A stretch of 27,608 nucleotides of DNA, taken from the IMG/VR virus record IMGVR_UViG_3300006029_000060, positions 1-27,608 of that record. One strand, 5' to 3'. The notes below the pieces were generated by a model. That model searched no databases. It was not told the DNA's origin and worked only from the letters and a program-made list of their open reading frames with translations. The stretch is from a virus. Its lineage: Duplodnaviria > Caudoviricetes. Each line of letters begins with the position of its first letter. Position 1 is the first letter of the stretch. A program made the position numbers and the translations under genes. This document shows positions 4,114 to 27,608 of this stretch, one piece after another.

Positions 4114-4340
4114 TGAGTAGTGTTATAAGAAAAATCAGTATAGGGTCTGATTATAAAAATGATGCGATGCACTACTCCGTTGGACAACAGGTGTATGGTG
4201 GTCATGAAATATCTGATATTCTCTTTGATGAGAAAGATAGTTCTTATAACATATACATAAAGAAAGGTGATGAGATCTTGCCTTGGAAAAAGTTCAATAG
4301 TAATATGGCTATTTCAGTCGAATACGACTTGCAGTATTAA
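4113..4340 (+). CDS. Small beta-rich hypothetical protein
   Basis: 75 aa, translationally coupled (TAATG) at both ends. Confidence 0.75.
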   Translation: MSSVIRKISIGSDYKNDAMHYSVGQQVYGGHEISDILFDEKDSSYNIYIKKGDEILPWKKFNSNMAISVEYDLQY

Positions 4341-4936
4341 TGAAAAGTATCCACGATTTTATCGTAAAACCCATCGAGGGTCGATACAACAATACTGTTA
4401 AGGTTGACGATGTTGACCTCATTATAAATACAAGAATTGAGGAATTTAAAAGTGTAAGCAAGGTGGCAGAAGTTGTCGCTTTGCCTTTATCTATAAAAAC
4501 TGACATTAAAGTTGGAGATAAAGTAGTAGTACACCATAACGTATTCAGAAGATTCTATGACATTAGAGGCAACGAAAAAAACAGTAGAAGTTTTATTAAA
4601 GAAGATATGTATGCTTGCTCACCTGAGCAAATTTATATGTATGGAGCAAATAAGGCTCATCTGGATTATTGTTTTGTAAAACCTTTAGTAAGCCATGACA
4701 TTTTCTCTTTAGATAGAGAGAAGCCTCTTGTGGGATTGTTAAAGCACGGAAACAAAGGTCTTGAGGAAATGGGTATAAACGAAGAGGATTTAGTGTCCTT
4801 CAGGCCAACGTCAGAATTTGAGTTTATCATTGATGGTGAACTATTATATTGTATGAAATTAATTAACATTGTTGCGAAACATGGACGTAAAGGAAACGAA
4901 GAGGAATATAATCCAAGCTGGGCAAAGAGCAGTTGA
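4340..4936 (+). CDS. GroES/cpn10-like protein, apparently two tandem GroES-like domains
   Basis: First half: FIVKP...AEVVALP...DIKVGDKVVV. Second half: YCFVKPL...EKPLVG...GINEEDLVSF....EFIIDGELLYCM...I. Both follow the GroES strand pattern. Confidence 0.65.
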   Translation: MKSIHDFIVKPIEGRYNNTVKVDDVDLIINTRIEEFKSVSKVAEVVALPLSIKTDIKVGDKVVVHHNVFRRFYDIRGNEKNSRSFIKEDMYACSPEQIYMYGANKAHLDYCFVKPLVSHDIFSLDREKPLVGLLKHGNKGLEEMGINEEDLVSFRPTSEFEFIIDGELLYCMKLINIVAKHGRKGNEEEYNPSWAKSS

Positions 4937-15752: not shown

Positions 15753-18700
15753 ATGCCAGAAGTTAAAAATATATTTGTCGGGGCTAAGATGAACAAAGAC
15801 CTTAACCCTAGATTAATTTCAAAAAATGAGTACATAGACGCAAGAAATGCAGAAGTTGTAAACTCGGAAGGAATGGATTCTGGATTATTGCAAAATGTTA
15901 GCGGAAACTCAATAGAAACATCGTTCGGTTCTGATGGAATAGAACTAGATGGGATTAATTTAGAAATAATAGGATTTTTTATTGATTCTACAAATAATAG
16001 GCTTTTTGCATTTATAACAGATTGGAACGATACCTCTTCTGATGGTTTATCTAATTACGCTTCATCTACATCTCATCATTATATATGTATGTATGATGTA
16101 GGTTCAAGAAGAAGCACAACGCTAGTTAGCGGAAGTTTTTTAAACTTCGCTAAAGGGAACCTTGTACTAGGCATAAATTTGTTAGAAGATTTATTGTTTT
16201 TTACAGACAATAGAAATCAACCAAGAAAAATAAACGTAAGCACTGCTATTGGAGATACTTCATACTACTCAAAAGAAGAAGATATATCTGTTGCAAAGTA
16301 TTACCCTTGGAAGCCAATTAGTTTCCTTAAGAACAAGGTAACTCCAGACATAACACCTTACTCTTTACAGCCAAACACTTCTTTAGAAATAAAAAATCAA
16401 GTTTATGCAGAGACAACAGCTTTGCCTGCTACTGCTTTTGATGGTGACATTAATTTTACTAATGCAACTTATGGTGATTTAGAAATTAAAGCTACATTTA
16501 TAAGTGGTTGGTTGTCTGCTGCTATTGTAATTGAAAAAGGTGAAGGTTTAAGCGAAGACCAAGAATTATTATTCTCATCTCCTTCAAGTTTAATATTTTA
16601 CGACTCCCCATCTCTTGGAACTCCAATACAGGCAACACTTATAGTTAGAGATATTAATATTGAGAAGGAAAATACAATGAAAGACGTTACGTCTATAGAC
16701 CTTCCGTTGACTCAAACTTTAACAATTGTAAGTGCTGCCTCTTCAGAGTTTGTTACATCTGACGCTGTAAATGAAAATTGGATAGGGTCTACATTGTATG
16801 TTTTGGATAGTGATAATAACCCAGAAACTCTTCCTTCAAGTGGAGTAACTGTGACTGCGATTGACGTTGTTGGTGGTAATTATAAAATTACTCACACACC
16901 AGCAAACCTTAATCTAAATTTAGGCAAAAAAGTTGTTCTTGGAGGTAATCCATACTATGATAGTTTATTTAAAGGAGATACAAATTTTATATCAGATAGA
17001 TTTATAAGGTTTAGTTATAGATTTAAGTACGATGACGATGAGTACTCTTTAGACGCTCCTTTCTCTCAAATTGTATTTATACCAAACCAAGATGGATACT
17101 TTTTAGAAGACAAGGTCCCATCTAGTATAAACGATGAACCTGCAAATTCAGACGAAAATAATGCTATTAAAAGTAGTATCATTAGCTTTTTTGAAAATAA
17201 AGTTAATCAAGTAGACCTATCAATACCTATGCCTGACGGTATCTCTTCTTCTGCACAATTAACAAAAGATTTAAATGTTAAAGAAATAGAAATTCTTTTC
17301 AAAGAGTCTGATAAAACATCTATCCAAGTATTAGAAAGTATATCTACAGATGAATTAAATTTAAGTACATCTAATAAGTATGTCTATGCATATAATTCCC
17401 AGTCTCCAGTCAAGACATTAACTTCAAAAGAATCTACAAGGGCTTCTGATAAGATACCAATAAGAGCAAAAGCTCAAGAAATTTCTGGTAATAGAGTTAT
17501 TTATGCAAACTATTTAGTTAGAACAGCTAGACCATCTACATTAGATTACAATTTACTTAGTTCAGAGAAACCAAAACTTGGAAATTTAAATTCTTTAAGC
17601 GAGTTAGAGTACCCTAATAGTGTTGTAAAACAAAATAGGTCTTATAAGGTTGGCATTGTTTTAGTGGATAAGTTTGGTAGACAATCAGATGTAATTACTT
17701 CTAAAAACTCAACTATATATACGCCTTACGAAACTATAGGAGGATTTATTGACAGTCTTGACAAAAGTGTTTATAGAGGGGAGTCGTTGAAGTTAGACTT
17801 TTTAACACCAATTCCAGAAGACAAAGGATACCTTCCAGGGTATGCAGGATTATATAGTGCAACAAATCCATTGGGTTGGTATACCTACAAAGTAGTTGTA
17901 CAACAAAAAGAGCAAGACTACTACAATGTTTACCTACCTACCATATTAAACTTTGCTCCTCAGTTAAATGGAGCATTAGTTTCTTCTTCAGGAGTAGCGT
18001 ACATAACATTATTTTCGGACAACATAAATAAAGTACCTAGAGACTTAAAAGAAGTTGGAGCGCAAGATTTACAGTACTCAAGCTCTGCTAATTTATATGG
18101 TCGTGTTTTTAATGATAAATTTAAAACCGCAGAAGCAACTTCAAAGCAATTCTTGCCTAGCCCAACTCCAGACAAGGTTATTTTAATAGGTACTAGGGAT
18201 GATGTTGGAATGAATAAAACTAATGATGGAGGTGATTACAATGTATCTCCATTTTACAGCATACCTAGTACAGCCACTACAGGTCCTCCTCCAGTTTATA
18301 ACACTACAAACTTAGGTGCAAACCCATACATTGCAAAAGTATCTACACAAAAATTAATAGGTGCACCAGGAGGAGATGTTGTAAGCCCTGGTGCAATAAA
18401 TCAATCTCAAGTTGATTTCAATAGAGTTAGACTTAATGTATATGAGACTAAGCCTGTAGAATCTAATTTAGATATATTTTACGAAACAGGAACTGGTGGA
18501 TTAATATCTGACTTAAACAATCAAATAAAAACAGCAGAAAGTAGTCTTAGACCATCTAGGATAAACGGTTGGTCATGGTACTTGTCTGAGGCAACACAAC
18601 CTTTATCTTTTGCAACTCCATCGGATTTTGACATAGTTACAAATGAAGGAGTATCTCTTTGCGACATTGCTGCTGTTGATCCTAACTCTGTTATAACAGG

Positions 18701-19721
18701 AGAAATAATTAGTATTAGGAATAGGGTTACTCCAGAACCTTGGAAAATTGAAGATTTAGGTTTATTTGAATTGGTCCAAGATATTAATACTAAAAAATTT
18801 AGAATTAAAGTAAACGCAAACAAATATTTTGTTCACACAGCTGGAAGTTATATTACAGCGAGTTATATTTTTAATTTTAAATTTACAAATACAGTAACAG
18901 AGGGTTCTGTCACAAAAAACTATTCTATAAATATTCAAGAATCTTCTGATAATGATTTAACAAATGAGCAGCCAATAGCTGTAGGAAAAACATTTTCAGC
19001 ACCAGAATTTTTAGAGTGGTGTTACGGTAGAAGTAAATTAGGCTTAACTCAAGACGAACCTTTAGGGCTTATAAATGGGCGGCCTGCTTTAAATCCTGCG
19101 CCTATAAATACTGGGGGGTTATACCTTAATTATTGGAATAGCTCTCCATTTACTTTTGCTATCTATGCAGACACTCGAGAAGGAGTAGGGCCTAATGGTA
19201 GAAAAGTCACTAGGATGACTCCAAATCTTCCAAATATTGCTAAAAGACAATCTAGCAATGGATGGAATCTTTTAGAGGTTTTTGACTTCAACAATGGCTC
19301 TGCCTCGCCTAATAATATTGACAAAAAGAAAGGCATGATTCTTACTTTAGAGGCCTTAAGGTTTTGGGATGTTTGGAGGCAACCTCCAGCATATGCTCAA
19401 AACTCAAAGTGGGTGGACTTAACAAATAGGCCTTATCAACAAAGATGGCGAAAAAACAACGATAATGGTTATACAGACTATCCTGAAATGAAAGACATAT
19501 TCCGTCTTGCAGAACAACCAGATGGAAAATACAATCTTGAGTTTAACAATAATGAAATAGTGTATCAAAATAAAACTGATGGAGGTACTAAGTATAGATT
19601 GTTTTTTAGAATTTATGACTCTTCAAGAGATGCTCAAGGTAATGTAGTTGGTTGGGGTAGAAACAAAAAAGGTTTTGAGCGTTTATCTATTGACGTAGAG
19701 GTTTTTAATGGGCCAAGGTAA
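15753..19721 (+). CDS. Tail stabilisation/muzzle protein, N-terminal part (P22 gp10-like beta-propeller)
   Basis: KMNKDL..RL....EYIDA.N start, LLFFTDNRNQPRKIN, RFSYRFKYDDDEYS, GNRVIYANY and YKVGIVLVDKFGRQSDV motifs; 1322 aa. Confidence 0.72.
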   Translation: MPEVKNIFVGAKMNKDLNPRLISKNEYIDARNAEVVNSEGMDSGLLQNVSGNSIETSFGSDGIELDGINLEIIGFFIDSTNNRLFAFITDWNDTSSDGLSNYASSTSHHYICMYDVGSRRSTTLVSGSFLNFAKGNLVLGINLLEDLLFFTDNRNQPRKINVSTAIGDTSYYSKEEDISVAKYYPWKPISFLKNKVTPDITPYSLQPNTSLEIKNQVYAETTALPATAFDGDINFTNATYGDLEIKATFISGWLSAAIVIEKGEGLSEDQELLFSSPSSLIFYDSPSLGTPIQATLIVRDINIEKENTMKDVTSIDLPLTQTLTIVSAASSEFVTSDAVNENWIGSTLYVLDSDNNPETLPSSGVTVTAIDVVGGNYKITHTPANLNLNLGKKVVLGGNPYYDSLFKGDTNFISDRFIRFSYRFKYDDDEYSLDAPFSQIVFIPNQDGYFLEDKVPSSINDEPANSDENNAIKSSIISFFENKVNQVDLSIPMPDGISSSAQLTKDLNVKEIEILFKESDKTSIQVLESISTDELNLSTSNKYVYAYNSQSPVKTLTSKESTRASDKIPIRAKAQEISGNRVIYANYLVRTARPSTLDYNLLSSEKPKLGNLNSLSELEYPNSVVKQNRSYKVGIVLVDKFGRQSDVITSKNSTIYTPYETIGGFIDSLDKSVYRGESLKLDFLTPIPEDKGYLPGYAGLYSATNPLGWYTYKVVVQQKEQDYYNVYLPTILNFAPQLNGALVSSSGVAYITLFSDNINKVPRDLKEVGAQDLQYSSSANLYGRVFNDKFKTAEATSKQFLPSPTPDKVILIGTRDDVGMNKTNDGGDYNVSPFYSIPSTATTGPPPVYNTTNLGANPYIAKVSTQKLIGAPGGDVVSPGAINQSQVDFNRVRLNVYETKPVESNLDIFYETGTGGLISDLNNQIKTAESSLRPSRINGWSWYLSEATQPLSFATPSDFDIVTNEGVSLCDIAAVDPNSVITGEIISIRNRVTPEPWKIEDLGLFELVQDINTKKFRIKVNANKYFVHTAGSYITASYIFNFKFTNTVTEGSVTKNYSINIQESSDNDLTNEQPIAVGKTFSAPEFLEWCYGRSKLGLTQDEPLGLINGRPALNPAPINTGGLYLNYWNSSPFTFAIYADTREGVGPNGRKVTRMTPNLPNIAKRQSSNGWNLLEVFDFNNGSASPNNIDKKKGMILTLEALRFWDVWRQPPAYAQNSKWVDLTNRPYQQRWRKNNDNGYTDYPEMKDIFRLAEQPDGKYNLEFNNNEIVYQNKTDGGTKYRLFFRIYDSSRDAQGNVVGWGRNKKGFERLSIDVEVFNGPR

Positions 19722-19763: not shown

Positions 19764-21500
19764 ATGGGATTTATTGAAGAGATAACATACTTTAACTCTT
19801 TTTTACTAAAGAAGGTAATACAGGGAGGTGATGATGCTAGTTACCCTGATCTATCAGTAGGGGCTGCTACTTGGCCTGCTCTTCCTTGGAATCCAGTAGG
19901 GTACCCTCAATTTCCCTTGCTAGCATCTTCCACGCCTGAATCTAATCGTGTTTCTTGGTACATTGAGGAGGCTAGAATAAGAGGCGGATATAATAACAAG
20001 CAAGTTGATTTTGGTTCAAAAGCTTATTTGTCGGAATCGGAAGATAGCGAGCTTTTTCTTTCAAATGGGTTAATATATTCTGGTTTGTATAATTCTAGAA
20101 GTGGTGTAAATGAAACAAATGTTTTTTCTACAGGAGAAAACATAACAAAAGAAGTAGACCCTAGGTATGGTGACATACAGAAGTTATATACGTCTGATAC
20201 AAATTTAATTATTTTTCAAGAGGACAAAGTTAGTAGTGCGTTAATTGATAAAGATGCAATATACACTGCTGATGGAAACCCTACACTTACAGCTACTCAA
20301 CTTGTTTTAGGTCAAATAACACAATACAATGGAGAGTATGGAATAAGTGACAATCCAGAATCATTTGCATTCAAGGGAGGAAGAATGTACTTCTCTGATA
20401 AAAATAGAGGGGCAATTATGAGGCTATCAAGAGACGGCCTTACTGAGATAAGTTCATACGGAATGAGAGATTACTTTAGAGACAGTCTATCTGTTATATC
20501 AGAGTCATTAAAGACTATTCAAATTCAATTATCTCTTCCATCTATATTGCCATCAACTCCAACAAACTTATTAACACTTACAAGCACTCCAGAACACAGC
20601 ATTTCAGAAATCCAATATGGAATGAGATTATCTGGAGGAGAGATACTTCCAGAGTCTTTATATGTTATAGATATAGATAATACTGTTGTTGATCAAGTTA
20701 CTATAACTCTTAGTGGAAACATAACAAGTTTCCCAGGGCAGGGAGGGGTTCTTCCTACGTTGGCTACTTTTTATAGTAATGTTTCAGATAAAATTGTTGG
20801 AGCTTATGACAACTATAATGATAAGTACGTTGTATCAATGCAAGACTGGGAGAGAGACTCTTACAACTACGAAACTCTTTCTTTTAACGAAAGCAACAAT
20901 GGTTGGTCTAGCTTTTGGGATTATGACCCTAGTTTTGGTGGGACATTAAATAGCACTTATTATACTTGTAAATTAGGTTCTCTATGGAAACATTACGATG
21001 AAAGTGTAATTAATAATAGGGGGACTTTCTATGGAGTATACCATCCAACATCTGTTCAGTTATCATTTAACCCAATGGTGTCTGTATCTAAAAACTTTCA
21101 AACAGTAAACTACGAAGGAACTAACGGTTGGCAGGTTGATTATTTTTTATCAGACCCAACAGGGACATTGCTTTTGGACTCGTTAAATAACTCATACAGA
21201 GATGAGTCATCTTTTATTAGAAGTTACGACCAAGGTTCTTACATTGAGTCTGGTATTACATATAGGAGTGGGTTTAACTTAAAAGAGAACAAATATTTTG
21301 CTAACTTAGTAAATAATGGAGCTTTGTTAAATCAAAATCAAGTAATACCACAGGGCATCCCAGGACAGGTTCTTCCAGGCTCTAGTATGAGTGGCATTAA
21401 AGGGTTCTTTGCTACAGTTCAATTAAGCACAGACAACACTACAGATTTAGGTGAGCAAAAGAATTTATTTGCAGTATCATCAAATTTTGTAAAATCTTAA
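19764..21500 (+). CDS. Tail stabilisation/muzzle protein, C-terminal part
   Basis: YGDIQKL, LIIFQEDKVS, GEYGISDNPESFA, YFSDKNRGAIMRLS.DGLTEIS.YGM.DYF, GWSSFWDY.P and KENKYF, which are typical of the C-terminal half of this family. Confidence 0.72.
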   Translation: MGFIEEITYFNSFLLKKVIQGGDDASYPDLSVGAATWPALPWNPVGYPQFPLLASSTPESNRVSWYIEEARIRGGYNNKQVDFGSKAYLSESEDSELFLSNGLIYSGLYNSRSGVNETNVFSTGENITKEVDPRYGDIQKLYTSDTNLIIFQEDKVSSALIDKDAIYTADGNPTLTATQLVLGQITQYNGEYGISDNPESFAFKGGRMYFSDKNRGAIMRLSRDGLTEISSYGMRDYFRDSLSVISESLKTIQIQLSLPSILPSTPTNLLTLTSTPEHSISEIQYGMRLSGGEILPESLYVIDIDNTVVDQVTITLSGNITSFPGQGGVLPTLATFYSNVSDKIVGAYDNYNDKYVVSMQDWERDSYNYETLSFNESNNGWSSFWDYDPSFGGTLNSTYYTCKLGSLWKHYDESVINNRGTFYGVYHPTSVQLSFNPMVSVSKNFQTVNYEGTNGWQVDYFLSDPTGTLLLDSLNNSYRDESSFIRSYDQGSYIESGITYRSGFNLKENKYFANLVNNGALLNQNQVIPQGIPGQVLPGSSMSGIKGFFATVQLSTDNTTDLGEQKNLFAVSSNFVKS

Positions 21501-21953: not shown

Positions 21954-22586
21954 ATGTCATTTGCAATAACATTAGGAGTAGTTGGTATTGGTACAAAAGT
22001 ATTTGGGGCAGCTCAAAGCTACAAAGCATTAAAAAAGCAGGCTGGCGAAGACAAACAAAGAGCCGAAGACCAAAGATTGCTTCTTGAAAATTTAGAGAAC
22101 AACAGACAAACATTGACTAATCCATACGCTAACTTAGGGGTTGCTACGCAGGCTGCTGAGATGCAGATAGAACAGACGGATATTGCATTAGCAAATACGC
22201 TTGACACTATACGTGCAACAGGTGGTGGTGCAGGAGGTGCTACAGCACTTGCACAGGCGGCCTTACAGAGCAAGAAAGGAGTTGCTGCAAGCATAGAGTC
22301 ACAAGAGGCGAAGAACGAGCAGCTAAGAGCACAAGGAGAGGTCGGTCTTCAGAACATGAGAGAAACTAGAGAGACTGCTAAATTAGATAGATACTCAGCG
22401 CTATCAGACCAAGCAACTGCTCAAGCAAGAGCAAGTGCTACTGGTCAGACTATGGCTAAACAAGCTATGTTTGACCTTGGGGGAGATGCTTTAATGGCAA
22501 CAGCTACTGGGATATCTGGAGGAGGAGGAACTACAGGCAAGGAGGCAATAGAAAACTTAGTAGATCCTAACGCACCAAAAACATAA
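21954..22586 (+). CDS. Probable small ejection/pilot protein (P22 gp7-like composition)
   Basis: Hydrophobic Gly-rich N-terminus, A/Q-rich coiled coil and GGGAGGATALAQAA. It is the first of three genes of increasing size after the tail module. Confidence 0.6.
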   Translation: MSFAITLGVVGIGTKVFGAAQSYKALKKQAGEDKQRAEDQRLLLENLENNRQTLTNPYANLGVATQAAEMQIEQTDIALANTLDTIRATGGGAGGATALAQAALQSKKGVAASIESQEAKNEQLRAQGEVGLQNMRETRETAKLDRYSALSDQATAQARASATGQTMAKQAMFDLGGDALMATATGISGGGGTTGKEAIENLVDPNAPKT

Positions 22587-22594
22587 TAACAAAA

Positions 22595-24250
22595 ATGAGT
22601 TATAGAAACCCCACATCACAAGTAGATACATCATTGAGTGATTCTTTTATTAAAAAAATTAATAAGCTTGGTGAAGACATAAGAACTACAGCCACTAACG
22701 CATCAATGATGGGTCAGGCTAGAAGAAATGCTAACCTGAAACTTGTCAATCAGATTGAGAACAATGTAGAGAAACTTGTTGGTCAAGCACAAGATAAACT
22801 TATTTCTGAAAATCTTGAGGCAGATGGATTTGCAGCGTCACTTCAGGAGCAAGCAGTAGCCTATAAAAAAGCATCACTAAACTTAGCTACCAAGGGAGAT
22901 TACCCTGAGAGAGCTGCAGACCTTGCAAAAAAATCAGAATTTCAAAACTACACCAAAAGATTGCCTACAGATATTGCTGCATTTAACACTACGGCAGAAG
23001 CCTTTAAAAAAGCTAGGGCAATAGGACTTTCAGGTAAACCTGGGTCTATAGATCCATACCAAACAGATCCTGCATATTTAGCTACAGAAGCTATAGAGTC
23101 TGGACAAAAGGACGGGTTTGTTACATATGAGTCAAGAGTAAATCCGAAGACTAAACAAATGGAAACTGTAAAGGTAGCAAGAGGAGAAGCTATAAGAGAA
23201 GCAAACAAACAGCAGAATATTGAAGGTGATGAGTATGTTTTATTTTCTAGTACTTTAAAGAAGGCCCAAACAGGAGCAGATGCTAGTAAATACAATCTTG
23301 GTGTTGGAGGTATAACTCCAGAAATATTTAATGGAGATGGTGGATTAAAAGCTAATTTTATTGAAGAAGGAATATATGACAAGAATGGTGTTTTAGTTGA
23401 AAGATTTAAAGGAGAGCCTCAAACTGTAATTAAGGTTGACAATGTTGGTAGGTACCCAGTTCAAGTTAGAAATTACAATGTCGATATGATGTCTGAAGAA
23501 ATGAAGCCAGCAGTCAATGCTAGAGTAGAAGGTTTGGCAAAAATAAATAATGAAGACCTAAACGCATTAGTTAGGTCTATGACTTATTCTAGGACGATAG
23601 ATGGAGTAACCCAATCCTTTTACAAATTTGTAAAAATGGATGGAGGTCAACCAGTAAGAGATGAGTCTGGAACGGTAATGTATGAACCAGAAATACAAGT
23701 AGGTAATGGTAGAAGAATAGGTAAAGAGTTTAATGAAGAAAATCAAGACACAAATGGATACACTCCTAGCGATTTTGAATTAATTAAAAAAATTGCTCTT
23801 CAAGAGACGCTTAATAAATCAGGGGCATACAACTCTTCTGTAGAGGAGTATAAAATAGAAAAGCAGTATATAGCTGAAGAAAAACCAACGGAAGCAAAGA
23901 CCTCTGAAGGAGATAAGAAAAGAATTGCTTACAAAAGTAAAATTGATAAGGCAATAGGTGACGTAAACTCTAAAGATATCAAAGGTCTAGTCAAAAGGCT
24001 TCAAGACCAACTAACTAATTTAGGTAAAAGTGATGACAAATATAAGCTTATGCCAGACCCTAATAATCCTAATATAATTACCCTAATTACTCCAGACAAA
24101 CTAAGTGGGTTTAAGGGCGAAGAAGATTTTGATTTGAGCAATAGTGATGGAATCATTAGGTTGAAAAATACATTGTATAATAGATACGATGTATTAGAAT
24201 CGGCAGAAGAGTCTTCAGGGAATGGAAGTACTAGCAGATTTAATAAATAA
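22595..24250 (+). CDS. Probable internal virion/ejection protein
   Basis: 551 aa with a helical N-terminal half, located between the pilot-like gene and the giant gene. Confidence 0.55.
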   Translation: MSYRNPTSQVDTSLSDSFIKKINKLGEDIRTTATNASMMGQARRNANLKLVNQIENNVEKLVGQAQDKLISENLEADGFAASLQEQAVAYKKASLNLATKGDYPERAADLAKKSEFQNYTKRLPTDIAAFNTTAEAFKKARAIGLSGKPGSIDPYQTDPAYLATEAIESGQKDGFVTYESRVNPKTKQMETVKVARGEAIREANKQQNIEGDEYVLFSSTLKKAQTGADASKYNLGVGGITPEIFNGDGGLKANFIEEGIYDKNGVLVERFKGEPQTVIKVDNVGRYPVQVRNYNVDMMSEEMKPAVNARVEGLAKINNEDLNALVRSMTYSRTIDGVTQSFYKFVKMDGGQPVRDESGTVMYEPEIQVGNGRRIGKEFNEENQDTNGYTPSDFELIKKIALQETLNKSGAYNSSVEEYKIEKQYIAEEKPTEAKTSEGDKKRIAYKSKIDKAIGDVNSKDIKGLVKRLQDQLTNLGKSDDKYKLMPDPNNPNIITLITPDKLSGFKGEEDFDLSNSDGIIRLKNTLYNRYDVLESAEESSGNGSTSRFNK

Positions 24251-24259
24251 AAAATTGAC

Positions 24260-27200
24260 ATGAACGAAGAGGCATTTAAAGAATCTTATAGATTATTTTC
24301 ATCACAAGGTTACAATGGGACTATAGATGAATACAAAAATCTTATTAGCACAAATTCAGAGGCAAAGAAAGAGTCTTATCGTTTGTTTTCAAGCGAAGGA
24401 TATAACGGAGACGAAAACGAATTTAACTCGCTAATAGGTATTGAATTGGGAAAGACAGGAGCTGTTGTGGAAGGGGATGCGACCACATCAGCAGATATGG
24501 GTTCAGCATCGGTGGATGGTTCTTTGGAGCCTCAAGAAGAGCTTCGTGATACAAGCTTAGAAGGCATTTATAAAAAAGCTACAAAAGACACTCCTACTGA
24601 CTACAATGTAGAAAATCCTATAGCTCAATTTTTTATTGACAAGACTGCTGCATTTGTCTCTGGAGCAGGTAGCCTATTGGCTGGTGCTGCGGATTTGGTG
24701 GAGGCTGTTCCAGATGCTTTAATATCTAGCGGAATAAATGCTTACAATTGGTTTGGTGATGATGATACTGACATTACTCAAGAGACAAAGAATGAAGTCT
24801 CAAACTTTATTGAAGACATCTTTTTTGTGGATGATGCCCTTAGAATTGTTTCATCGGAAGCTAGTAAATTTAAAACAGTAAGAGACTCAGATGACGGAGA
24901 GGGGATACTAGGGGCCTTTGAAAAAGGTAATTACTTGGAGGCTATAGATAGGACTCTTTCTGGAGCATTTGAAGCAGCTCCCTCCGTAATAGCGGCAATT
25001 GTACCTGGAGGTATATACGTAGTCGGTGCTTCGGCAGTGGGTAGTCACTATGAAGAGAAGTCTGAGTTTAGCGACAAAGATAGAGGACTAGGAATGCTTA
25101 CTACATCTTTAGCCCAAGGTGGAGTAGAAATGGTTTCAGAAATGGTCACAAGGGGTATATTTAAAGGTGCTGCTAAAACATTTAAAATAGCAGGTAAGTC
25201 TACTAAGGAATCCATCAAGGAGACAGCAAAGCTAATGGGCAAGGATATGTTTTATGAGGGAGCTTCAGAAGTAGGGTCGGAAGAGGTTAACAATGCAATA
25301 GACCAAATGTATGGCTTGAATAAGTTTTACGATAAGAATGGAGATTTTGACGGTACAGCACTACTTCAAAGAAGTTTTGACACCTTTATAATTTCTTCTA
25401 TTTTAGGTGGAGCAACTAGTGCAGGTGGAACTTTATCTAAAAAGCAACAAGCATACAAGGAAGACAGAATGATGTCCCCTGAAATGAGAGGTGAGAACTT
25501 AAAGATTAAAGAGACCATAAAAAAACTAGAGAAAGAAAACGAAGGCGTTAATAACGAACAAGTAAACGATAAGATTTCTAGTTTAAAAACTCAATTGGAT
25601 TCTAATGTTTCTTCAAACAGGGCTATTGTGGATAGCATGACAAAAGAAGATTCTAAAGAGTACTTTGATTTATTAGATAAAAACATAGATTTAAAGGCTG
25701 AAGCTAATAACTTAGACCTTACTGATTCGCAGAAAGAAATAAATTTAAGCTTATTAGAACAAAACAACAACAGGCTTAACGAAATATACAATAATACAGT
25801 AGCTACTAATAACGAAGCTGTTATTCAAGAAGTTGAATCTATAGAGGAAGATGTAAGTGCAGAAACTGATAATGCATTTACTCAAGATGACGCAACCGTA
25901 TATACAAATCCTACCGATGATAAATACGCCACTATAAATAGAGGTGATCAAAAAGGTAATGTAAACCTAACCAAAGAGGAGTTTGATGCTCTTGATAAAG
26001 CTCCTGCCGAACAAACCAAACCTCAGACAGTTCAAGAACTTGAACTCGAAAGAAATGCAAAGTTGGATGAAATAAATCTTGCAATAAAAGAATCAGAAGC
26101 TAAAGGAGATACACCTATGGTTGATGGTAAGCCAGTAACGAGAGAAGATTTAGATTTAGTTAATAAAGACTATCGCTCTAAGATAGAAGAAGCATCCAAG
26201 ACACAAGAGGAAGTTGTTGAGGAAGTCGTTGAGGAAGTAAAGGCAGAGGACGAAGTACCAGCAGAGGTTGTGAGACTAAGAGAAGAAGCGATAGATGCAG
26301 AACCAACAGCAGAAGAATTTGATTTAGGAAAGAAAGAGGTTGAAGATTTAAATACTGGAACCACTACTATATCTAAAGATATAAAAATATTTAAAGGTCT
26401 TGGAGGAAAGAAAGACTTAAAAGGCCAAAGGCTTAGTGCTCACGATGGAGTGAGTGGAGTATTTAGTGCAATTGATGAAGACATTGCTAACGACTATGCT
26501 AGAGGAGAAGGCGTTTCAGAGATATCGGTTCCTTCAGGAACGACAGTTGAAGTCATAGAGATACCTAGGTCTAAAGGGATGACAATGAGTGAATACAGGG
26601 CTAAAGAAGTAGAAGCCATAAATAACTCTGATGCTCAAATCGTAAAACTTATAACTTTAGACTCTAAAATTAAAAAAGGAAGCAAAAGCAATAAGCAATC
26701 TCAGTACATAATAAAAGACTCTGGGTTGATAGCTGATATGTATGACTCTAAAGGTAAAGCTAAAAAGAAAGGCAAAACAAAGACTCAAAAATCCATAGAC
26801 AAACAAGTTGATAAAAAAATAGATTCTTCAGAAAAAGTTACAATTACGGCCAAGTCGGCTTTGTATAAGATGTTAAAAGATGTCGATAGGGGAGGAAAGT
26901 ACGCAGCGAATGAAATAAAAGCATTTAGAAAAGACCTTCAGTCAAAACTAAAAGAACTTACAGAGGGGAAGAAAGGAGAGATAACTACAAAGCAAGCAAG
27001 TGCAATCATTAAAAAAATAAACACCGTAAATCCTAATAACTCAAACCAAGTTGATGATTTGCAAAATTATGTAGAGAAGGTATTTAACGATGCAGACTAC
27101 TCGGATAAGATTTCTAAAGCAGAGAATGTAAGAAAACAAGTAAAGAAGGGTGCTAAAGATAAGAATCAAGAAGCAACTCTTGTAGAGTTAGCCAAGAGGT

Positions 27201-27608
27201 TTGCTAAGATAAACCCTAAGAACGTAAAAGACATAGATGCTTACATTGAGATGGCCAATAAGATTAAGGACGGTGTAGTAACCTCTAAGGTCATTAAGAC
27301 AGACGTAAACTGGACATCTTCTCCAGACGTTGTAAGTGCTGATGCATACATATCTGATCAGATGGAGGTTCAGAATGAAATTGAATTAAAAAGAAAGTCT
27401 GAAGAGTTTGAAAGAGTTACAGGTATACCTAGCGGAGACTTAAATTATAATCAGATGATGGAAGTTCTATCTAGCGAAAAAGAAGTTGATAGTACAAAGG
27501 ATACATTAATTAGAAAGGGTATAGATAAAACATTTGAGACCTATAAGAGTATAATAAACAGTATTATATCTCAAGGTGTTGACCCATTCACTGGGGAGAA
27601 CCTTAAGT
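24260..27608 (+). CDS. Giant multidomain virion/ejection protein (3'-truncated, >1116 aa; not in ORF track)
   Basis: ATG 24260, translated by hand to the window end without a stop. It has an N-terminal ESYRLFSSxGYNG duplication, G/A-rich hydrophobic segments, coiled coils, an acidic linker, an ART-like domain and then helical regions. Confidence 0.88.
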   Translation, partial: MNEEAFKESYRLFSSQGYNGTIDEYKNLISTNSEAKKESYRLFSSEGYNGDENEFNSLIGIELGKTGAVVEGDATTSADMGSASVDGSLEPQEELRDTSLEGIYKKATKDTPTDYNVENPIAQFFIDKTAAFVSGAGSLLAGAADLVEAVPDALISSGINAYNWFGDDDTDITQETKNEVSNFIEDIFFVDDALRIVSSEASKFKTVRDSDDGEGILGAFEKGNYLEAIDRTLSGAFEAAPSVIAAIVPGGIYVVGASAVGSHYEEKSEFSDKDRGLGMLTTSLAQGGVEMVSEMVTRGIFKGAAKTFKIAGKSTKESIKETAKLMGKDMFYEGASEVGSEEVNNAIDQMYGLNKFYDKNGDFDGTALLQRSFDTFIISSILGGATSAGGTLSKKQQAYKEDRMMSPEMRGENLKIKETIKKLEKENEGVNNEQVNDKISSLKTQLDSNVSSNRAIVDSMTKEDSKEYFDLLDKNIDLKAEANNLDLTDSQKEINLSLLEQNNNRLNEIYNNTVATNNEAVIQEVESIEEDVSAETDNAFTQDDATVYTNPTDDKYATINRGDQKGNVNLTKEEFDALDKAPAEQTKPQTVQELELERNAKLDEINLAIKESEAKGDTPMVDGKPVTREDLDLVNKDYRSKIEEASKTQEEVVEEVVEEVKAEDEVPAEVVRLREEAIDAEPTAEEFDLGKKEVEDLNTGTTTISKDIKIFKGLGGKKDLKGQRLSAHDGVSGVFSAIDEDIANDYARGEGVSEISVPSGTTVEVIEIPRSKGMTMSEYRAKEVEAINNSDAQIVKLITLDSKIKKGSKSNKQSQYIIKDSGLIADMYDSKGKAKKKGKTKTQKSIDKQVDKKIDSSEKVTITAKSALYKMLKDVDRGGKYAANEIKAFRKDLQSKLKELTEGKKGEITTKQASAIIKKINTVNPNNSNQVDDLQNYVEKVFNDADYSDKISKAENVRKQVKKGAKDKNQEATLVELAKRFAKINPKNVKDIDAYIEMANKIKDGVVTSKVIKTDVNWTSSPDVVSADAYISDQMEVQNEIELKRKSEEFERVTGIPSGDLNYNQMMEVLSSEKEVDSTKDTLIRKGIDKTFETYKSIINSIISQGVDPFTGENLK
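24448..24510 (+). other. Putative programmed -1 ribosomal frameshift signal
   Basis: Correctly phased X_XXY_YYZ heptamer G_GGA_AAG (24448-54), 6-nt spacer, and stem GCTGTTGTGG/CCACATCAGC (9 of 10 pairs). Loop GATGC is complementary to downstream GCATC (24506-10). Confidence 0.6.
26207..26239 (+). repeat. Short in-frame 12-bp tandem repeat (EEVV x2.75) in an acidic linker
   Basis: gaggaagttgtt gaggaagtcgtt gaggaagta. Confidence 0.7.

Follow-up and report, generated by a model that had tools for sequence, protein, structure and literature searches.

A predicted -1 frameshift cassette near the start of a giant gene in aquatic phages

Background

Whether the giant gene that ends the virion module of an uncultured phage is read as one protein or as two is the question addressed here. 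Close to its 5' end this gene carries a G_GGA_AAG heptamer with a potential pseudoknot behind it, and the original prediction, made from this single sequence, was that a -1 shift at this site yields a 96-aa isoform of a protein of more than 1100 aa, which was taken for an ejection protein. The gpG/gpGT switch of phage lambda itself uses GGGAAAG. According to passages of PMC5009743, G_GGA_AAG is highly shift-prone in E. coli, and it is also the sequence used at the g-t site of phage HCTV-5.

We found no prior description of the cassette in the literature outside subscription papers. The main texts of PMC13288928 and PMC5335546 contain neither "frameshift" nor "gp101", their supplements being places that may bear on the cassette, and the main text of PMC10172136 does not contain "frameshift". 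RNA-seq of phi38:1 is deposited as SRP066570 (SOLiD reads; PMC5335546). The comparison with known work also took in bioRxiv 10.1101/2025.10.02.679949.

Results

The phage and its late virion module

The DNA analysed, called the window below, is a 27,608-nt (27.6 kb) fragment of an uncultured phage that encodes terminase, portal and virion genes. Its closest cultured kin are Flavobacterium elemo phages and Cellulophaga phi38:1/phi18:3-like phages; the terminase reaches 44.5% against that of elemo, and the portal gives the same affiliation. From these phi38:1/elemo-type relatives we infer a Bacteroidetes host. The final three genes of the window code for a 210-aa protein, a 551-aa protein and the giant, in the order of phi38:1 gp99-101 and elemoA gp88-90, and this small-medium-giant order at the end of the virion module is the one seen for podophage ejection/cargo genes. 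Gene order and PHROG matches thus place the locus in a phi38:1/elemo-like podophage, and not between a major tail protein and a tape measure. Two genes anchor the analysis:

21954..22586, + strand: conserved 210-aa gene upstream of the giant gene, homologous to phi38:1 gp99, which is annotated as a virion structural protein (E 5.5e-12 in a 33-protein database)
24260..27608, + strand: giant ORF in the 0 frame, last gene of the virion module, running off the window; presumed ejection/cargo protein

Elsewhere in the window, at 4340-4936 and 2280-2759, a GroES-like co-chaperonin that immediately precedes the terminase gene, and an endolysin of the M15 peptidase type, recall phi38:1-like phages. 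Consecutive same-frame ORFs at 15753-19721 and 19764-21500 match separate parts of one PHROG (14478), the second carrying the crassvirus muzzle C-terminal domain (PF25729); a separate ORF start lies at this point in many relatives, and the split looks natural.

The giant protein is indeed large, as the original prediction had it, and its full length is corrected to about 1,965 aa (P0002), the ORF being truncated by the window. We found no Pfam or PHROG family match for it and no detectable similarity to the giants of cultured relatives (gp101, gp123 and gp90). Its naming as an ejection protein is based on gene order and is kept here as a presumption about an ejection/cargo role. A related giant protein, P0016, has an AAA_33/zeta-toxin-like kinase domain at residues 2382-2539, which suggests that some giants may deliver enzymatic cargo. 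A 13-nt perfect inverted repeat, A/T-rich, lies at 24246-24258 and 24625-24637, 366 nt apart; one arm sits just before the start codon of the giant gene, and the arrangement may be due to chance.

The shift site, the pseudoknot and the -1 frame

The elements of the candidate cassette lie in the first part of the giant ORF:

24260..24447, + strand: N-terminal module common to both products, two repeats of about 30 aa, predicted helical and lineage-variable
24448..24454, + strand: slippery heptamer G_GGA_AAG at codons 63-65 (TTG GGA AAG), in phase with the ORF from 24260
24455..24460, + strand: 6-nt spacer, read from the sequence
24461..24492, + strand: predicted pseudoknot stem 1, 24461-70 with 24483-92, 9/10 pairs, with a U24465.U24488 mismatch
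24476..24510, + strand: predicted pseudoknot stem 2, GATGC at 24476-80 with GCATC at 24506-10, 5 bp
24493..24528, + strand: conserved -1-frame motif RYGFSIGGWFFG, predicted beta-hairpin
24547..24549, + strand: -1-frame stop TGA, which would end the 96-aa transframe product

The coordinates of the phased heptamer, the spacer, the complementary arms of both stems and the stop codon were all as predicted. So was the length of the product, since the -1 frame runs for 31 codons to the TGA and 65 + 31 codons give 96 aa (10.8 kDa), with YGFSIGGWFFGASR as the expected peptide. The N-terminal module is duplicated as had been noted, in the form of a 51-nt repeat (24268-318/24358-408, 73% identical, 90 nt apart), and the module of a homologue was modelled as four helices at low confidence (mean pLDDT 54). 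The GC-rich patch also proved real: G+C is 0.53 in 24448-24549 vs 0.32 upstream and 0.39 downstream, so that among all 102-nt windows of the giant ORF this stretch ranks within the top 0.06%.

There are 65 phased XXXYYYZ heptamers in the 8,867 codons of the window, and the site at 24448 has the best pseudoknot score of the 65 (-25.1, the next being -17.7) on our own stacking sum, which is not a validated program. The 36-nt hairpin folds better than its shuffles (z -3.4, 1/200), while the 61-nt and 102-nt stretches show no such advantage (z -0.86 and -0.03); within the 102 nt, stem 1 has to compete with a nested fold and reaches a pair probability of about 0.3. Within this one genome the evidence for the cassette is only modestly above chance, and single-sequence folding alone is not decisive. 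Near-identical strains in four public DNA runs differ at 24495, inside the cassette, by a change that is silent in the -1 frame and replaces Asp with Gly in the 0 frame. A contig from an RNA run spans 24363-24514 without a gap and with a single difference; it shows neither transcription nor lack of slippage.

Recurrence of the cassette among relatives

Relatives were gathered through the upstream 210-aa gene, without reference to the cassette; two of the collections were the best 80 of 498 and the best 80 of 474 matches. From 187 loci, 51 were set aside because they did not contain both the middle and the giant gene, and the remaining 136 giant starts were reduced to 83 lineages below 60% identity. 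These were scanned, frame-blind and with leave-one-out scoring, with a DNA profile seeded on 24493-24531 (39 nt). The motif was found in 49 of the 83 lineages, this phage included, with scores of 14.6-55 and all other lineages below zero; control stretches of the middle gene scored above zero in 0/83, and the phase of the motif was identical in all 49 matches. The cassette is the same in all 49: a shift site, a predicted pseudoknot whose stems show compensatory changes, and a -1 frame that stays open.

A strict XXXYYYZ heptamer stands 30-80 nt before the motif in 30/49, vs 17.1% of 9,800 control windows, which bears out the prediction that an in-phase heptamer is conserved. When near-canonical sites are admitted, in five classes that were defined after inspecting the data, the figures are 49/49 vs 10.5%. 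The sites are G_GGA_AAG (17), G_GAT_TTT (14), A_AAT_TTT (5), A_AAA_AAG (4), A_GTA_AAG (4) and others (5), so that 19/49, among them G_GAT_TTT and A_GTA_AAG, depart from the strict form. Across the 83 lineages, 21 phased copies of GGGAAAG were counted in the 7,055 early codons (positions 25-110) vs a single one in the 57,410 late codons (170+), and Gly-Lys is encoded as G_GGA_AAG in 21/51 early vs 1/386 late cases.

The spacer measures 4-7 nt in nearly all relatives, and a putative H-type pseudoknot recurs with differing sequences, with roughly 9-11 bp in stem 1 and 5-7 bp, mostly 6, in stem 2. On our own stacking score it is better than 30 dinucleotide shuffles in 38/49 at p<=0.07 (mean z -2.06), and a score of -25 or lower is reached by 2/676 late heptamers. 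Compensatory changes, another of the checks proposed with the original prediction, appear in both stems in a set of 17 loci hand-picked for similar geometry. Stem 1 aligns there without gaps, with 95.3% of cells paired vs 29-61% in slid controls, and shows two-sided changes in 6/10 pairs (0/500 shuffles); in stem 2 the pairing of each locus with its own arm was better than in 10,000/10,000 arm permutations. Together these features have the layout of canonical -1 frameshifting, namely a phased X_XXY_YYZ, a 5-9 nt spacer with a computationally predicted 3' structure, and a selected -1 frame that has no start. On this comparative evidence the predicted cassette is far beyond chance.

The N-terminal modules that precede the site fall into 33 groups among the 83 lineages. 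P0006 has a near-identical cassette and giant body, whereas the module fused to them immediately ahead of the Gly-Lys site is unrelated, which implies that modules are swapped at the shift site. A pattern scan for the heptamer with the stem 1 arms gave mostly chance hits (4/119 loci passed the filter and two were true relatives) and was excluded from the statistics.

Selection acts on the -1 frame

In the -1 frame the motif reads (R/E/K)-Y-G-(I/F/L/V)-x-(I/F/A/V)-G-x-(W/Y)-F-(F/I)-G, typically RYG-h-x-h-G-x-(W/Y)-FFG, and its G, G, F and G are invariant in 49/49. The frame is open for 14-41 codons upstream of the motif and closes 15-22 codons after the motif start, giving products of 69-130 aa. 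ATG, GTG and TTG are absent from the open stretch in 49/49, and reading it would therefore need recoding.

Over the 49 lineages, pN/pS in the motif is 0.37 in the -1 frame, vs 1.49 in the 0 frame and 1.69 in the +1 frame. As a control, the core of the upstream 210-aa gene behaved like any normal coding sequence, with 0.09 in the true frame vs 5.84 in -1. The contrast between -1 and 0 at the motif is seen again in each site class (0.34-0.36 in -1 vs 1.29-1.69 in 0), under bootstrap (0.33-0.41 vs 1.34-1.67) and in 13 disjoint close pairs (0.08 vs 1.17), in which 22/29 isolated changes are silent in -1 yet replacing in 0. Changes within lineages are less one-sided, with 20 silent in -1, 6 silent in 0 and 21 replacing in both. 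Variation is concentrated at the -1 wobble position (entropy 1.19 vs 0.58-0.76), the exchanges at the motif being W/Y and F/I in -1 and G/T/I and L/S in 0, and 0-frame Thr at the motif is ACG in 31/31 vs 6.8% usage elsewhere. These patterns indicate purifying selection on the -1 peptide and none on the annotated frame over the same stretch, and the conserved -1-frame peptide of the original prediction is borne out. All the checks put forward with that prediction which sequence data allow thus favoured it.

A possible second route through a run of ten A's

To describe an A-run class, and for that purpose only, we used loci selected by the motif DNA alone: 79 loci, from which 10 not at the 5' end of the giant gene and 8 duplicates were removed, leaving 61. 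The A-run type was scored in 22/61, with exactly ten A's in 21/22; six further A-run loci, in which the -1 stop overlaps the run, were put under "other". No run of at least 10 A's occurs in 172,789 nt of control ORF sequence. The distance from the run to the motif ranges from -1 to 42 nt, and this combination of a fixed run length with no fixed spacing suggests RNA-polymerase slippage, by which the A10 relatives would reach the same -1 frame. The class has what is expected of such slippage, a conserved homopolymer of at least nine that goes without a fixed 3' structure. Ribosomal slippage on A_AAA_AAA may be an alternative for this class, and phi38:1 nevertheless scores a pseudoknot of -26.8.

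The cultured phages phi38:1, Calle_1 and elemoA have A10 at the corresponding place, and their -1 tails are aromatic and loosely motif-like, with profile matches that are not significant. A spring phage has A11 instead of A10. The phi18:3 record has an A9 run and a split giant gene, gp122/gp123 (L087:25310-31440), where relatives have A10; the split probably reflects an error in the homopolymer, or natural variation, within a single gene. No giant gene was present in the stretch of Gundel_1 examined.

Absence of the cassette and divergent tails

The cassette is absent, with neither site nor pseudoknot, in 25/83 lineages. Nine further lineages have a site, a predicted pseudoknot (score of at most -26) and a divergent tail. 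L108 (giant codon 67) and L124 (codon 72) have G_GGT_TTT or G_GGA_AAT and a strong pseudoknot with no aromatic -1 motif, and are possible intermediates of cassette decay or carriers of a different tail. On a quick rather than a careful tree the state "none" requires at least 5 changes, and sisters of carriers show loss (L091 vs L090, L167 vs L131). Because the cassette is missing in 25/83 and repeatedly lost, the short product is probably accessory and not essential. No association of cassette presence with the upstream gene was evident.

The motif had not moved elsewhere in the six frames of the 34 motif-negative loci, which are stretches of 5.7-10.5 kb each and not whole genomes. In L104 (7341-7750) a degenerate second copy of a cassette-like stretch follows the first inside the giant gene. 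A stand-alone gene for the short protein was also considered and rejected: a profile search among 1.84 billion proteins gave 20 small ones, which resemble in-frame fusions of module and tail, and the 10/20 that were looked up are all singleton clusters of 1-2 contigs each. From this singleton status we read them as sporadic indels.

Discussion

Two probable products from one gene

The giant gene very probably yields a 96-aa isoform by -1 recoding, and we consider it highly likely that programmed -1 ribosomal frameshifting at the conserved site and predicted pseudoknot is what gives the two proteins, of about 1,965 aa and 96 aa. Following established frameshift biology, ribosomes would pause at the pseudoknot while GGA AAG occupies their P and A sites, and the Gly and Lys tRNAs would re-pair from GGA AAG to GGG AAA; the slipped fraction would then translate 31 new codons and stop at 24547. 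In A10 relatives, slippage of RNA polymerase would lead into the same frame. The isoform would consist of the lineage-variable N-terminal module and a constant predicted beta-hairpin. Its module, identical to that of the giant, might associate with the giant or with the giant's partner while the hairpin docks on a conserved particle surface, and the shift rate would fix the ratio of giant to isoform. We tentatively propose for the isoform an accessory role as an adaptor, in assembly or in the virion, that links the giant to the particle; this assignment is speculative.

What the short protein might do

Searches for relatives of the short product gave none in the PDB (best E 0.76), no match in PHROGs, and in the ESM Atlas a best value of 0.82, to be taken as a lead only. 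The model of the 33-aa tail has beta strands at 15-21 and 24-30 at low confidence (pLDDT about 64-73), and the predicted hairpin is flanked by basic residues. Tails contain 16% Gly, 14% Arg and 8% Phe, with few acids.

This composition, with the basic flanks, would also suit a real frameshift whose product is aimed at the host, either as a basic aromatic hairpin that binds a membrane or a conserved host protein or as a decoy exposing the giant's variable N-terminal module to the defences of the host. The diversity and swapping of the modules, as in P0006, fit such a role, and so does the repeated loss in sister lineages, which accessory host-interaction genes often show. We nevertheless regard a host-directed peptide as somewhat less likely than the adaptor: the gene ends the late virion module, so its product would appear late; the hairpin is strongly conserved, not diversifying; and strands of seven residues would be short for a membrane-spanning hairpin.

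A small chaperone, as first suggested for the protein, that would bind metal through its Cys/His motif had its appeal in the pseudoknot-type tails, which hold 2-5 Cys in all 49 and C-x-C in 44/49, at a Cys rate of 0.186 per codon vs 0.049 in control -1 frames. It now seems improbable, because the CC-x3-C-x-H motif turned out to be private to this phage (1/49) and His precedes the motif in only 12/49. Nor does "Cys-rich" survive as a defining feature, since the linker Cys is absent in 20/22 A-run tails, which keep the aromatic motif. The codons for Cys fall within the stems, where UGC/UGU serves pairing, and the enrichment in pseudoknot-type linkers may follow from this. The constant part of the tail is thus better described as a predicted beta-hairpin than as a Cys/His motif, and we favour the adaptor over a metal-binding chaperone as well as over a host-directed peptide or decoy.

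It could also be argued that the shift serves only to reduce the output of the giant and that the -1 peptide is a by-product, as truncating shifts can set ratios and as the nine lineages with a divergent tail, and L124 and L108 with no recognisable motif, might suggest. A chance stop would be expected early, whereas a -1 frame open for 27 codons is found in just 2.7% of control windows, and the low -1 pN/pS, the four invariant residues and the retention of the motif in the A10 class largely refute this view already, leaving it a very small probability. An equally slight chance attaches to there being no recoding at all, with the stretch acting as a DNA or RNA element, as a 0-frame D-G-S-L peptide motif or as a small overlapping gene that starts independently: the DNA of the 39-nt motif shows good conservation and single copies can form hairpins (mean MFE -6.3 vs -6.0 codon-resampled, 19/200), but variation sits at the -1 wobble with exchanges that are conservative in -1 and not in 0, RNAalifold finds no common structure in the motif, a start codon is missing in 49/49, Rfam has no match to the cassette, and there is no terminator-like site.

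Comparison with known recoding

The nearest parallels are truncating shifts described in passages of PMC5009743. In E. coli copA an early -1 shift gives the 70-aa CopA(Z), a putative chaperone, vs 834 aa for the full protein, with which it shares the N-terminal domain. The phage cassette likewise sits early in a long gene, where a -1 shift would cut the product short and leave it the N-terminal part of the full protein; copA, however, encodes a bacterial transporter with no homology to the giant, and in the phage the -1 frame contributes 31 residues that carry a conserved motif of their own. For dnaX the same source describes the tau/gamma pair, in which the shorter product arises by frameshifting in E. 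coli or by transcriptional slippage in Thermus thermophilus. There too, lineages differ between a ribosomal and a polymerase route, as the pseudoknot and A10 classes appear to, but Thermus slippage ends at nearby stops in both other frames, whereas the phage uses one frame with a selected peptide. In alpha-carboxysome csoS2 a truncating -1 shift in a large shell-associated protein is predicted in 79/162 species (PMC5009743, in part), a similarly patchy distribution; according to the same passages CsoS2A keeps 570/869 residues, 3 of them from the -1 frame, in contrast to a tail of 31 aa in the phage. The cassette works like the truncating recoding of copA, dnaX and csoS2 and is set apart by its long selected tail.

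Phage systems offer a looser likeness. Like lambda gpG/gpGT, the cassette is a -1 shift in a phage morphogenesis gene that would fix a ratio, but gpG/gpGT belongs to long-tailed phages and its shift, near the 3' end, extends the product. The cassette lies in podovirus-like phages, its shift at codon 65 of about 1,965 (3%) truncates, and it is often lost; the defining features of the G/GT tail-assembly chaperones are not present. Part of PMC9965538 describes a -1 shift at GGGAAAG in the major capsid protein gene of Kuravirus, apparently lost in SU10. With this gene and with T3/T7 gene 10 the cassette shares a -1 shift in a podophage structural gene, the heptamer being common to the kuraviruses, but those shifts extend the C-terminus of the major capsid protein and do not truncate an internal giant.

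Significance

The conserved frameshifts known from phages lengthen tail chaperones or capsid proteins, whereas the shift in the giant gene would truncate its protein and add a selected peptide. The cassette would thereby give many aquatic phages, among them the cultured phi38:1, Calle_1 and elemoA, a small protein that their annotation lacks. It supplies dozens of natural, sequence-diverse candidate bacterial pseudoknots, with several shift sites (G_GGA_AAG, G_GAT_TTT, A_AAT_TTT, A_GTA_AAG) in one shared geometry, and what appears to be a swap between ribosomal and polymerase slippage inside one gene family. The deposited proteomes (virocell and virion, PXD066074 / MSV000098485, from PMC13288928) and transcriptomes of phi38:1 allow direct testing. 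If the adaptor role were to hold, which we put forward with reserve, this would be a portable cassette that grafts a constant hairpin onto interchangeable N-terminal tags, read by pseudoknot frameshifting or A10 slippage, and may represent a new class of virion or ejection adaptors in aquatic Bacteroidetes-type podophages.
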